From the IMG/VR virus record IMGVR_UViG_3300014682_000009: a stretch of 7,154 nucleotides of DNA. One strand, 5' to 3'. Shown here piece by piece: positions 2,116 to 7,154 of this stretch; position 1 is the stretch's first letter, and each line of letters starts with the position of its first letter. The notes below the pieces were generated by a model, which did no database searches, had not been told where the DNA came from, and worked only from the letters and a program-made list of their open reading frames with translations. Made by a program: the position numbers and the translations under genes. The DNA comes from a virus (taxonomy: Duplodnaviria > Heunggongvirae > Uroviricota > Caudoviricetes).

Positions 2116-2456
2116 CAGTGAGTGACCTCTTCAAAGGTACAGTTAAAATCGGTATACATGGCATTATCCGAAATGCTCCACTCCCTGCAGACAACCCGGA
2201 CAGTCCTGTTGTGTTTTGGCGGACGCCACAAAAAAGCACGAATCCCGGCATGACGGGATAAAAAACTGTCCAGCGCGGCACGGGAATATTCATCTGTGAC
2301 ACGAAATACCGGTTTAAACGTTTTCAGATCCGCATTCAGACCACCAGCCCGTCGCTGTTCATATCCGTCACCAAACTTTACCGTAATAACTGATGGCTTT
2401 CGTGTCGTCTCCATCCCCTCACGGGGGATCCAGTTAAAAACTTCAGGCTCAGGCAC
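2115..2456 (-). CDS. M: Minor tail protein M (lambda gpM family); start uncertain between GTG 2456, ATG 2471 and ATG 2414
   Basis: Translation ...VKFGDGYEQRRAGGLNADLKT...FLWRPP... aligns with lambda gpM (VRFGDGYSQRAPAGLNANLKT...FLWTPP). GTG at 2456 has a strong GGAGGA SD 7 nt upstream (2469..2464) and overlaps the tape-measure stop by 8 nt. The ATG at 2471 sits inside that SD and has no SD of its own. The TTG at 2501 used by the ORF track is unlikely. Confidence 0.85.
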   Translation of the reverse strand: MPEPEVFNWIPREGMETTRKPSVITVKFGDGYEQRRAGGLNADLKTFKPVFRVTDEYSRAALDSFLSRHAGIRAFLWRPPKHNRTVRVVCREWSISDNAMYTDFNCTFEEVTH

Positions 2457-5400
2457 TGTACAATCCTCCATCCCGACGCGATGACTGCATAATTGACACA
2501 ACCCTGCTGTCGATCAGATCCACCAGTCCCCTGGCTGAGCGCGCATCTATCTCGCCATTGCTCCCTTGATTCTGAATGCTGATGTGATACACGGGAGAAT
2601 AAACAAATCCACCGCCACCATTCACATTTCCAATGGCCCTGACCCCAAGAGAGCCGTCCGCTGCCCGTGTCAGTGGCATGATTGCTTCAGGCCCGGCCTC
2701 GCCCATCAACCCGGCACCTTTCGCAAAAGCAAAATACGTCGGTGTATCCACAATAGTGTTACTGTAAGCACTCAGATTTGCCGATGTGTAAACACCACCT
2801 TTTGCGTTTGCCACTGCCCCCGAAATCCATCCGCCGACCGTACCAAGCCACCCTCCGGCACCGGAGAGTGATTTCAGTCCGTTAACAATGGCTGCATTCA
2901 TCAGAATTTTTGAAACTTCCCGGAGAACTGAACTCCCCCAGTTCCTCCAGTCCACAACATTCCCGGCCAGTGCATCGGAAATATTTGATACCAGCCCGTC
3001 CATCGTGGAAACGACAGCATCTGCCGCCTGTGAAGCATAATCGGTGGCACTGTCTGCCCAGTTGGTCAGTCCCTCCTGGAGTCCGGCATTCCAGTTATTA
3101 CGTAAAGCATCGGCCTTTGCATAATAATCCTGCTGATCGCTGAGACGCTCTTCCAGATATTTTTTATTCAGTTCTTTCTCCTGTTTCCACAGGGCTTCTT
3201 CAATTTCTCCGGCCTGATACTGTCTCAGCAGCTCGTTATTTTTCTGCTCAAACGCCTGCCGGATACTCCACATTTCCTGGAGTCGTTCACGCATCCGTGA
3301 GCCTTCACCATATCCCAGCAACTGCGCGTCGTCAGATGCCCGGGCACTGGCATTACTGTCCGCCAGGCTGCTCTCATACGCAGCAAGCTGCTCACGAATC
3401 TTTTTCTGGTCGATGAGTGCTGCATTCTGCAAAAGCGTTTTTTTCTGCGCTTCTGACAGGGTTGATAATTCGCCCTGACTGACCTGATATTTCATCTTAG
3501 CCAGTTCAGTATTCTGCCCTGCCAGTGCTATTTGTTCTTTTTGCTGTTTAATCAGCCGTTTATAAATATCTTCTGTTTTTTCAGCTTCGGTCTTTTTATG
3601 CGCTTTTGGTTTATTTGCCTGGTTATTTCGCCAGGCATCCAGTGAGTTATTGATATAATTCTGTCTGGCTGTCTGATACGCCTCTCCCACAAAGCCGAGA
3701 TCATCCGCAGCATAACCCAGGCGGGCACGCTCACGGGCTTCCCCCTTCAGGCGGGACAGAGCCAGTTCGCGCTCGCTGTTATTCAGTGCTGTCTGCTGTT
3801 TATCATCCAGGGTTGCCTGTGGTAGCCGTAACGGTACATTCACCATCCCCTGTCGCTGCTGAAGTAATTCATTACCGAGCCCGAGAAGGCGATTAAACTC
3901 GGTATGCTGCCCATTCATGATCAACAGGGACTGATACGCTTTGTTTTGTTCCGCTGCCTGTTGACGGATCAACGCCACCCGTCGCTCCTCCAGCCCGGCA
4001 AGCACATCCTGAATGGATTCCGCTTTGCCCTGCATTTGTGTGAGACGGGACTGTTCAACTGCCAGTTGATTTGTTGCTTCTGCAAGCCCTTCTGTGACAG
4101 TTTTTACCGACGTCATGTGGTTAATCATAAAACCGTTATCGGTTGTCCAGCCCGGGTTTGCCAGCACATACTGATAGCCAGCAATTTTTTCCTGTAAGGA
4201 TTTAATCTTACTTTTCTGCTCGTCAATTAACCTGTTTTGCTCATCAAGTGCCTGCCGCGTCTTTTCCTCATTATCTGACGCTTCAGGAAGCGACATTGCC
4301 GACGTTTTCTGGCGAATTTCGTCGATTGTTGCGGCATACTGGCGTGCAGATTCTCTGGCCTGCTCCTGATTCTGATACATCGTGTACCAGGCCGTCGCCC
4401 CCAGCATGACGAGTCCCGGCACACCACCAACCAACCCCAGCGCACCACTTAACAGACGACTCCCCACTGACGTGACAGTATTCAGCGTTGTCTGTGCCGC
4501 TGTTCTGGCCGCAATATTACGGGTAAGTGACGCCTGGGCAGCAGCCAGTTTCGCTTCTGCGGCTGCCTGCCTTTCGGTACCGCGAGCAGCAACAACCGCC
4601 TGTTGCGCACGATAAACCGCCGCACGCGCCCTGGCTGTTGCTATCTGTGTCCCCCGGAGCTGCGCTTCCGCAAGAGCCACTTCGTTTCTGGCTGCAGTAA
4701 TTAATCCGGCAGTTGCAGATCCAGCAGAAGACGCCATATTGCCAAAATATCGGGCTACCCCGACGGCAACCAGAGCACCAGCAGCGGTTGCCACAGTGTC
4801 AATATTGCCTGCAATACCATTCAGCACACCGGAGAGCGTCTTCGTCACTCCGCTTGCCTCGTTCGCACCACCAACCCAGGCCATAAAGGCGTTTTCAACT
4901 TTGGTTGCAGAGGATGAAACCGTATCAGGCATTGCCGCATATTCATCACGTAATGCCCCAAGCTGACTAATCAGTGCAGGAACAACCTTATCGGCGGTCA
5001 GTTTTCCGTTATCCGCCATGGCCTTCAGATCCTTACGGGCAACCCCCATTCCCGCAGCCAGCGCACGAATAACACGATCGCCGTTCTCATTCACCGAGTT
5101 AAACTCTTCACCGCGCAGCACTCCCTGCGCCAGTGCCTGACTGAACTGCGTGATCACCGAACTGGCTTCTGCTGTACTGGCACCGGATAATTTCAGGCCC
5201 GTGGAGATCGCCTCGGTGACTTTCAGTACCTCCTCAGAACTGTAACCATACTCCCGCATGGAAGCTGCAGAACGGGCAAAAAGGCTGGCGTTATCAGAAA
5301 ACGCCGTCCCCGTTCTCTGGCTGATCGCCATTAATTCACGTTGTGATACCTGAAAATCATCACTGGACTGTGAGGCCTGCTTCAGACGGGCATTTACTGA

Positions 5401-5682
5401 ATTCCACTCATCGGCGAGAGAAATAAGATGACCGGTAGCAAAAGCCCCGGCAAATGCCCCCGTCATATTCAGTGCCGAAGATTTAGCTGTATTTATCTGA
5501 TCCGTCACTTCTGCCAGTGCACGCCGCATTTCACGGGATGCAGCAGCGGACTGCCGGCCTCCGTTCTGCATGGTACGGTAGTAATCCTGCCCCATACGCG
5601 AAGCCCGGGAGATCTCTGACTGGAATGACCGGGAATTTGCCGAGATTTTAATAATCAGTTCACGTAATGTCGCCACACTCAT
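2449..5682 (-). CDS. Tail tape measure protein (tail length determinant; lambda gpH functional equivalent, divergent sequence)
   Basis: 1077-aa ORF placed between the G/G-T chaperone genes and M. Long Ala/Gln/Glu/Lys-rich predicted helical stretches, two hydrophobic segments (around ...TVATAAGALVAVGVARYF... and ...LLSGALGLVGGVPGLVMLGATAWY...), and a Gly-rich C-terminal region ending ...RDGGLYSA that resembles the lambda gpH C-terminus (...RDGGLFS...). ATG at 5682 with GGAG immediately upstream (short spacer). Confidence 0.93.
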   Translation of the reverse strand: MSVATLRELIIKISANSRSFQSEISRASRMGQDYYRTMQNGGRQSAAASREMRRALAEVTDQINTAKSSALNMTGAFAGAFATGHLISLADEWNSVNARLKQASQSSDDFQVSQRELMAISQRTGTAFSDNASLFARSAASMREYGYSSEEVLKVTEAISTGLKLSGASTAEASSVITQFSQALAQGVLRGEEFNSVNENGDRVIRALAAGMGVARKDLKAMADNGKLTADKVVPALISQLGALRDEYAAMPDTVSSSATKVENAFMAWVGGANEASGVTKTLSGVLNGIAGNIDTVATAAGALVAVGVARYFGNMASSAGSATAGLITAARNEVALAEAQLRGTQIATARARAAVYRAQQAVVAARGTERQAAAEAKLAAAQASLTRNIAARTAAQTTLNTVTSVGSRLLSGALGLVGGVPGLVMLGATAWYTMYQNQEQARESARQYAATIDEIRQKTSAMSLPEASDNEEKTRQALDEQNRLIDEQKSKIKSLQEKIAGYQYVLANPGWTTDNGFMINHMTSVKTVTEGLAEATNQLAVEQSRLTQMQGKAESIQDVLAGLEERRVALIRQQAAEQNKAYQSLLIMNGQHTEFNRLLGLGNELLQQRQGMVNVPLRLPQATLDDKQQTALNNSERELALSRLKGEARERARLGYAADDLGFVGEAYQTARQNYINNSLDAWRNNQANKPKAHKKTEAEKTEDIYKRLIKQQKEQIALAGQNTELAKMKYQVSQGELSTLSEAQKKTLLQNAALIDQKKIREQLAAYESSLADSNASARASDDAQLLGYGEGSRMRERLQEMWSIRQAFEQKNNELLRQYQAGEIEEALWKQEKELNKKYLEERLSDQQDYYAKADALRNNWNAGLQEGLTNWADSATDYASQAADAVVSTMDGLVSNISDALAGNVVDWRNWGSSVLREVSKILMNAAIVNGLKSLSGAGGWLGTVGGWISGAVANAKGGVYTSANLSAYSNTIVDTPTYFAFAKGAGLMGEAGPEAIMPLTRAADGSLGVRAIGNVNGGGGFVYSPVYHISIQNQGSNGEIDARSARGLVDLIDSRVVSIMQSSRRDGGLYSA

Positions 5683-5692
5683 TCTCCGGACG

Positions 5693-5714
5693 AAAAAAAA
5701 CCGCCGAAGCGGTT
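5693..5714 (-). terminator. Terminator-like hairpin (UUCG tetraloop) with U8 tract in the T-H intergenic region
   Basis: Minus-strand RNA AACCGC-UUCG-GCGGUU followed by a run of eight U in total; lies between the T stop (5725..5723) and the tape-measure ATG (5682). Confidence 0.45.
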
Positions 5715-5722
5715 ATGTTGAC

Positions 5723-6411
5723 TCACTGAGACACTATTAAAAGCGCGTTTTCCAGTCCGGCAAATGGATCTGATACGCCTTCTGTCTGCTCCTTCTCCCA
5801 CTGAAGAAGCGCATCATTCAGTGGCACTTTGACCCCCTGCGCACCGTAAACAGCTGAAACAATCTGGGCAGCCCGGATATCAGCCCGTTCGTCCCCCAGC
5901 GGGCTGAACCTGTCAAATTCTGCCCACATCATGATTTCTGATGCGGACATTTCCCGGCGTAACTCTGACAATGTGCGCCCCATCCTGAGCGCCAGCATCA
6001 TCAGAAAACGCATCCCCGGAAGCTCTACTTTTTTTTAACCTCGCCGGCATCACTGATCAGTTCCAGAGACTGCCGAAGAAGCCGCGCATGCACCGGGCCA
6101 TACACGGCAATCACCTGTTCACGATCATCCTCTGAAAATACAGGTTGCAGTCCGGTATCACACAGAACATCAATGAACAGTTCAACATCTGCCTCCAGAT
6201 TTCGGCGGGCGCGCTCCGCAACGGATAACGGTGTCTCATCATCTTTTGCTTTAACGATCTCCTGCCAGCGCAACCAGGCTTCTGCAGAAGGTTCCCGTAA
6301 TACAACCGTTGCCCCTTCCCATTCAGGCACATCAACAGTTTTATGGCGAAACCCCGACATCGTTGCCAGTGCCAGATTGCGGATATTTTTAGTCATCACA
6401 TCTATCCTCAT
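5723..6411 (-). CDS. GT: G-T fusion chaperone produced by programmed -1 ribosomal frameshift (T segment 5723-6034 in the -1 frame)
   Basis: The 96-aa T ORF (5723..6013) is in the -1 frame relative to G. The -1 frame is closed by TAA at 6037..6035 and open from 6034, so the shift must occur in the heptamer at 6034..6028. Predicted junction ...GEVKKK|VELPGMRFLMMLAL... Confidence 0.85.
6025..6411 (-). CDS. G: Tail assembly chaperone G (lambda gpG functional equivalent)
   Basis: 128-aa acidic ORF immediately downstream of V (TAATG stop/start overlap at 6413..6409), ending ...GEVKKK-TAG with the slippery A_AAA_AAG at its last two codons; position and frameshift architecture are diagnostic of G. 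Confidence 0.88.
   Translation of the reverse strand: MRIDVMTKNIRNLALATMSGFRHKTVDVPEWEGATVVLREPSAEAWLRWQEIVKAKDDETPLSVAERARRNLEADVELFIDVLCDTGLQPVFSEDDREQVIAVYGPVHARLLRQSLELISDAGEVKKK
6028..6034 (-). other. Slippery heptamer A_AAA_AAG (X_XXY_YYZ) for the G-T -1 frameshift, abutting the G stop codon
   Basis: Minus-strand reading GAG GTT AAA AAA AAG TAG, part of an 8-A run (plus 6029-6036 is T8); the zero-frame stop TAG is at 6027..6025, directly 3' of the heptamer. Confidence 0.8.
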
Positions 6412-7130: not shown

Positions 7131-7154
7131 ATAAAAAACCCGCCAGCGGCGGGG
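7131..7154 (-). terminator. Intrinsic-terminator-like hairpin with U-tract upstream of V (3' of the preceding gene, presumably U)
   Basis: Minus-strand RNA CCCGCC-GCU-GGCGGG (6-bp all-GC stem) followed by UUUUUUAU, then the V SD and ATG. The structure abuts the window edge, so the 5' flank is unseen. Confidence 0.5.

Follow-up and report, generated by a model that had tools for sequence, protein, structure and literature searches.

Morons are accessory genes that carry a promoter and a terminator of their own, and the first of them was located at the junction of the tail chaperone genes with the tape-measure gene (PMC3594210). The summary given in that article credits the definition to Juhala et al. 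(2000). In P22, the ant moron is thought to affect the late transcription that reaches the tailspike gene (PMC2629481). In the records of phages HK97 (NC_002167) and HK544 (JQ086374), a terminator is annotated after the gp15 moron and 12 nt ahead of the tape-measure gene, at 8398-8422 and 8350-8372, respectively. In lambda, tR' and other terminators are overridden by Q, and polymerase that has been modified by Q ignores intrinsic terminators.

Here, we describe a hairpin followed by a U-tract at the equivalent junction of a stretch of viral DNA of 7,154 nt, referred to below as the window. A lambdoid, HK97-type tail gene cluster fills the window, and its genes are read on the minus strand (Table 1). 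Prophages in 904 of 5426 complete Escherichia coli genomes match the region at 97-99.8% identity, as do 11 induced or isolated phages (e.g., vB_EcoS-689R5, PhiR49_2, Evi, and phi467). The element is of a known kind: HK97 and HK544 have one annotated in the equivalent place, and a terminator is part of the definition of a moron. What is mildly new is that the terminator tracks the leader of the tape-measure gene H rather than the cargo, and that it persists when the slot is empty.

The T-H junction in its operon

Table 1. Coordinates of the T-H element and its neighbours in the window, and of related features in PhiR49_2 and in cargo-bearing loci.
Feature	Position	Strand	Basis or remark
Hairpin before V, CCCGCC-GCT-GGCGGG then TTTTTTATTTT	7139..7153	-	about 20 nt upstream of V
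V (major tail)	7115-6411	-	ATG 7115
G (Phage_TAC_1)	6396-6025	-	Pfam; stop TAG 6027-6025
Slippery heptamer A AAA AAG (candidate)	6028..6034	-	directly 5' of the G stop TAG
T reading frame (Phage_tail_T)	5723..6034	-	ORF list; Pfam PF06223, E = 3.5e-19; stop TGA 5725-5723
Empty accessory-gene (moron) slot, 8 nt GTCAACAT	5715..5722	-	alignment, gap survey; from T stop to hairpin
T-H hairpin, 6-bp stem AACCGC/GCGGUU (4 G-C, 2 A-U), C(UUCG)G tetraloop	5699..5714	-	sequence, consensus scan, folding
U-tract, 8 consecutive T	5693..5700	-	first two T pair with the AA of the stem; six T past the stem
Shine-Dalgarno GGAG of H	5684..5687	-	7 nt upstream of GTG 5676; leader YCYGGAGAA kept in relatives
H (tape measure)	2449..5676	-	with GTG 5676-5674 as start
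M, L, K, I	beyond H	-	tail cluster
Antitermination protein Q	PhiR49_2 (L281) 14530-14910		followed by lysis, head and tail genes
tR'-like terminator hairpin after Q	PhiR49_2 (L281) 14979-14999		
Canonical terminator hairpin after major capsid gene	PhiR49_2 (L281) 24431-24450		
Cargo-bearing T-H gaps	L001 1880-2325; L018, L075, L078, L079, L084, L096, L098, L100-L103		

On the minus strand, AACCGC-UUCG-GCGGUU and the U8 run stand in the spacer between T and H, as the first-pass annotation of this DNA had read them. The 5' base of the hairpin lies 8 nt past the T stop and the U-tract ends 16 nt before the H start, while the loop is closed by the pair C5709-G5704, which makes it a C(UUCG)G tetraloop. 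A consensus scan calls the hairpin terminator-like (6 pairs, 4 of them G-C, with a loop of 4 nt). Folded as an isolated 22-mer, it reaches -8.1 kcal/mol (z = -3.35), and only 2 of 200 shuffles fold equally well; when 66 nt of context are folded, the result is no better than shuffles (z = -0.31). The 12-mer CCGCTTCGGCGG occurs once in the window.

Chance expectation depends on how strictly the motif is defined. When at least 5 pairs, at least 3 G-C pairs, and at least 6 T in 8 are required, the expectation is 0.36 sites for a 7154-nt strand and about 0.002 for the T-H spacer. Three such sites are found on the coding strand of the window: the T-H hairpin and 7153-7139, which are both intergenic, and 6599-6586, which is inside V and has a weak tail. 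In the window, a loose consensus scan picks up 16 terminator-like sites where 7.0 would be expected, weak matches being common. None of the Rfam 15 covariance models matches the window at E <= 1. With its G-C-rich, short-loop stem, its uninterrupted U-tract, and its sense orientation in non-coding DNA after a stop codon, the T-H element looks like the textbook form of a Rho-independent (intrinsic) terminator. A weak promoter-like site inside H (5673-5645) was disregarded; the window as a whole has fewer such sites than shuffles.

The start codon of H is very probably GTG 5676 and not ATG 5682. In the E. coli locus L002, ACG occupies the position of the ATG 5682 of the window and ATG that of GTG 5676, and ATG is also found at the latter position in L064 and L070. 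Both the PGAP annotation and the record of PhiR49_2 open H at the GTG (in the record, T ends at 27391 and H starts at 27438), and the H homologues begin with M-A-T-L-R-E-L. The strength of the H start codon therefore differs between copies, with ATG in L064 and L070 versus GTG. With the start at GTG 5676, the T-H spacer measures 46 nt and the spacing from GGAG to the start is a normal 7 nt. The hairpin does lie within this spacer, as had been claimed, but the length of 40 nt given for it does not hold; similarly, GGAGA does abut an ATG in the sequence, but this ATG is very probably not the start.

Upstream, the 3' end of G reads GAG GTT AAA AAA AAG TAG, in which a run of eight A holds the slippery heptamer (6025-6036). 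From the conserved G/GT arrangement, A AAA AAG would be the expected site of a -1 frameshift, through which T would be translated as the C-terminal extension of G-T. The records of HK97 and HK544 carry a 'programmed frameshift' annotation at G/GT.

The wider operon can be read in PhiR49_2, which is 98.8% identical to the window over the query region. Besides cI, cro, and replication genes, this lambdoid prophage has Q, lysis genes, an HK97-type head, and the same tail. Its late operon appears to be of the Q-antiterminated type; Q lies outside the window itself. In the late region of PhiR49_2, five sense-strand sites that combine a hairpin and a T-run score best: three follow Q, the tRNA genes, and the major capsid gene, one precedes V, and one is at T-H. 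The other sense-strand matches have poorer T-tails. The hairpins after the capsid gene and after Q suggest that particular intergenic junctions of the late operon are furnished with terminators, few in number. The sister hairpin before V, which sits at the edge of the window between the tail-completion gene and V, belongs to this set of sites. Relatives of V with as little as about 49% identity keep a hairpin in this position, for which the HK97 and HK544 records list a terminator, and no cargo slot adjoins it.

Conservation of the element and turnover of the cargo

Relatives of the junction were collected with the N-terminus of H as the query. In the resulting 160 loci (80 from IMG/VR and 80 from GTDB), T and H were located and the leader was extracted. 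Among 36 distinct gammaproteobacterial leaders, from Escherichia to Pseudomonas (H N-terminus 59-99% identical), 35 have a hairpin and a T-run that ends 11-23 nt before the H start; in the sole exception, L092, the hairpin is kept and the T-run has decayed. The element is absent from all 13 leaders of distant alphaproteobacterial relatives (25-31% identity). Between them, 20 lineages have 19 distinct stems and 17 loops, yet the stems remain paired save for two mismatches at outer positions, one of which is in L092. Pairs were counted outward from the loop by a script, as a MAFFT alignment of 23 leaders had shifted the stems with 4 G-C pairs by one column.

The number of different loops suggests that the identity of the UUCG tetraloop is incidental. 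The first-pass annotation had stressed the unusual stability of such loops; the C(UUCG)G loop is indeed present, but the T-H hairpin is the least stable among the compared lineages (about -7 to -8 kcal/mol, in a range of -7 to -19 for the relatives). A role at the level of transcription, which had also been proposed, is credible given the terminator form, the coding strand, the location in the T-H spacer, and the conserved position.

A second group of tape-measure proteins (TMP; 38-44% identity) has the element in 13 of 15 Enterobacterales loci. In eight loci of this group, the stem CCTCGC/GCGGGG (with a T-G wobble) and the leader TTTTTTATTGCCYGGAGAAAA are held in common, the cargo ORFs upstream differ, and inspection shows that the sequences cease to resemble each other at the hairpin's 5' base. 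Taken together, these features suggest that the hairpin belongs with the H leader and that the cargo is exchanged upstream of it. L018 is a counter-example, in that its H N-terminus is 99% identical and its hairpin and Shine-Dalgarno sequence are different, a pattern that points to a recombination boundary at the H start. In addition, the 3' end of T differs between the empty form of the junction and the form with a zinc-ribbon gene, which suggests an exchange boundary inside T.

At shorter distances, the 16-nt hairpin is identical in 115 of 115 empty junctions from IMG/VR (L166-L280), although these copies, which come from a degenerate pattern scan with fixed flanks, are only 1-3% diverged and say little on selection. 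The T-run varies among them, probably through homopolymer slippage: 32 copies have 7 T, 78 have 8 T, and 5 have 9 T.

In the surveyed relatives, the T-H gap is either 28-47 nt (empty) or 277-1688 nt (cargo), and a terminator-like element is present with either type. Four lineages combine the empty slot and the element: the window type, L092, L097, and L099. In the window, the slot amounts to 8 nt with no ORF, and thus to no extra gene; no promoter-like site was found on the coding strand in or near the spacer upstream of the hairpin. Of the components of a moron cassette, the window appears to have the downstream factor-independent terminator, in the form of the T-H element.

Two E. coli matches are split by about 400 bp, and in these (L001 and L002) a 342-nt gene for a zinc ribbon domain-containing protein, whose product matches Pfam Zn_ribbon_3, lies between T and H. 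The hairpin, the T-run, and the H leader follow its stop codon and are identical to those of the window. The same hairpin and leader are found after the zinc-ribbon gene in Leclercia and Enterobacter too (L090, L093, and L094). Compared with this cassette (e.g., NZ_CP178694, WP_000394908), the window thus has the same hairpin, T-run, H leader, and flanking T and H, but it lacks the 342-nt gene and its upstream region, and its A-tract upstream of the hairpin is shorter (AA versus AAAAA in the zinc-ribbon relatives). In L001, the hairpin (2285-2306) is flanked by A5 and T8 and scores as a terminator on both strands; the window copy is unidirectional because most of the A-tract has been lost. A sigma-70 consensus scan upstream of the zinc-ribbon gene in L001 returned no promoter, a -35 hexamer TTGACT being visible by eye only. 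The scan thus lends no support to expression of this cargo on its own. Of the complete E. coli genomes, 843 have the empty junction and 46 the one with the zinc-ribbon gene, which makes the empty form about 18 times commoner.

The cargo is of several kinds: a Zn-ribbon membrane protein, YebO/gp15-like proteins, several lipoprotein families with no Pfam match, and VasI-like, TPR, and HNH proteins. It is A+T-rich in enterobacterial loci (GC 0.30-0.46, against 0.51-0.52 for the tail genes of the window); in Pseudomonas, the GC content of the cargo is 0.48-0.52. In every cargo locus, the ORF nearest the hairpin is on the strand of the tail genes. L095 additionally has a large reverse-strand ORF in the slot. 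By analogy with gp15 of HK97, superinfection exclusion is conceivable for the YebO/gp15-like cargo, and for this kind only.

Explanations for the element

We consider it probable that the T-H element is a resident intrinsic terminator that forms the downstream edge of the moron slot and stops polymerase not modified by Q before it enters H-J, the slot being empty here. The first-pass annotation had missed this context, which explains the element best: the T-H junction is a classic HK97-like moron slot. Both the termination and the read-through under Q are what we infer from the motif and from lambda biology. RNA polymerase without the Q modification would transcribe the G-C stem and the U-tract and would release its transcript before H-M-L-K-I-J. 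In a lysogen, such polymerase would have started either at the promoter of a cargo gene inside the slot or at some stray site in V-G-T. During late lytic growth, Q-modified polymerase from pR' would pass the T-H terminator and the other internal ones. In the window, where the slot is empty, only 8 nt separate the T stop from the putative terminator, which has no cargo to accompany it.

There is a counterpoint to this explanation: with neither cargo nor promoter in the 8-nt slot, the window prophage has no obvious transcript for the hairpin to stop. Moreover, the hairpin is kept in an empty slot in 843 E. coli genomes, and a role independent of cargo thus fits at least as well. It may be, and we advance this only tentatively, that the terminator and the leader form one unit (the hairpin, the U-tract, and the Shine-Dalgarno sequence in YCYGGAGAA or GGGTGAAA), which would be a selected, cargo-independent fixture of H that predates the morons. 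Such a unit would insulate H-J and make the T-H junction a safe harbour in which accessory genes build up and turn over, and, along with the hairpin before V, it may tune the dosage of H or the stability of its message.

It has also to be considered, along the lines of the first-pass annotation, that the element works during the lytic phase, as an attenuator or an mRNA-stability element through which the V-G-T message outlasts or outnumbers that of H-J and which helps to set the low dose of H. In one variant, part of late transcription would stop at the hairpin; in another, the hairpin would block 3'-to-5' exonucleases after processing. We regard this as rather unlikely. The position does suit the stoichiometry, since many copies of V and G and few of H are needed, and the hairpin has been kept without cargo in four independent empty slots and in the 843 E. 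coli genomes. The stem is also invariant in all of the 115 copies, though these are too alike to show selection, and the ant moron of P22 offers a precedent (PMC2629481). However, the same kind of tail is built without a T-H hairpin in lambda, where T and H overlap by 8 nt, in HK022, where the gap is 19 nt, and in L112 and L113, none of which has a hairpin at this junction. Furthermore, an equally conserved hairpin immediately precedes V, whose product is the most abundant protein of the tail and where attenuation would oppose the need, and the operon lies downstream of the Q antiterminator gene. The same facts weaken the argument, made in the first-pass annotation, that the hairpin is well placed because the product of H is needed in only a few copies per tail.

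The hairpin could instead be a vestigial scar, that is, the remnant of a zinc-ribbon moron cassette that has lost its gene and its promoter, and be functionless in the window prophage. This appears improbable. That this hairpin and leader also accompany the zinc-ribbon gene, in E. coli, Leclercia, and Enterobacter, agrees with such an origin, as do the shortened A-tract of the window and its hairpin, the weakest in the set; L092 shows that decay of the T-run in an empty slot is possible. Yet a scar is hard to reconcile with an empty form that is so much commoner than the cargo form, with the lack of any stem mutation in 115 copies, or with an intact terminator in three of the four independent empty slots. 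The hairpin of the second TMP group goes with the H leader and not with the cargo, and the T protein of the window is full-length and colinear, with no sign of a deletion fusion.

Translational control of H, in which the hairpin or the U-tract would modulate ribosome loading, or the loop and 3' arm (CUUCGG) would, once polymerase has read through, re-pair with CCGGAG and mask the Shine-Dalgarno sequence, is very improbable. In its favour, the U-tract ends just 5 nt before the Shine-Dalgarno sequence, and in the minimum free energy (MFE) fold of the window context (-60..+15; 5662-5736) CUUCGGCGG pairs with UCG/CCGGAG, which masks both the Shine-Dalgarno sequence and the start. However, this is the context fold that does no better than shuffles, and the terminator hairpin is retained in the MFE fold of 22 of 23 representative lineages, including L001, which has the same hairpin and leader. 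(L001, whose A-tract is longer, keeps the hairpin in its MFE fold.) Complementarity to the Shine-Dalgarno sequence is absent in lineages with other loops, and between the end of the stem and GTG 5676 there are 23 nt, which puts the stem outside the typical ribosome footprint. Masking of the Shine-Dalgarno sequence as a conserved mechanism was accordingly rejected, as it is confined to the window-type context, is absent from the 22 other lineages, and is no better than shuffles. The suggestion that the hairpin may influence initiation is likewise not supported, and its premise of an abutting Shine-Dalgarno sequence is an artefact of the wrong start codon.

Finally, a chance inverted repeat beside a T-run, devoid of biological meaning, might be suspected from the short stem and from the frequent weak matches of the loose scan, but it is a negligible prospect and effectively refuted by the comparative data, given the rarity of the strict motif in a spacer of this size and a position kept across dozens of lineages with differing sequences.

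The practical value lies mostly in annotation. If the element is the resident terminator that we favour, the T-H junction can be annotated as a moron slot that is empty but has kept its terminator, in a prophage family present in roughly a sixth of complete E. coli genomes. The start codon of the tape-measure gene can be corrected to GTG 5676. Unrelated cargo turns over upstream of a terminator that remains attached to the H leader, and this holds for both TMP groups. The pattern suggests that resident terminators help to decide where phages tolerate accessory genes. Should the element also affect the dosage of H, it would add a transcriptional layer to the control of tail stoichiometry.

Comparison with P22, lambda, and HK97

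Among described systems, the ant moron of P22 is like the T-H slot in being a variable accessory region that closely precedes a tail gene and belongs to a late operon under Q. The two differ in phage type and in the gene concerned, and the P22 region comprises repressors, an antisense RNA, and several genes; there is no homology between them. The tR' terminator of lambda is an intrinsic terminator in a lambdoid late unit that only antiterminated polymerase passes, as the T-H element is proposed to be. However, tR' is a regulatory switch at the very start of the unit, whereas any regulatory role of the T-H element, about 12 kb further on, is hypothetical.

The closest likeness is with HK97 and HK544, in which the terminator occupies the same slot as in the window, from the G-T tail chaperone genes to the tape-measure gene, and is on the same strand. 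The architecture matches as well: a G-C hairpin is followed by T7-8, a Shine-Dalgarno sequence, and the H start 12-16 nt on. The H N-terminus of HK544 is 92% identical to that of the window. The sequences themselves differ, the hairpin being GACCCGCT-ATCA-AGCGGGTT in HK97 and AACCGC-TTCG-GCGGTT in the window, and the leader being of the type GGGTGAAAAT in HK97 versus CCGGAGAATGAGT in the window. Lastly, HK97 has the gp15 gene upstream of its terminator, whereas the window has the terminator without it.
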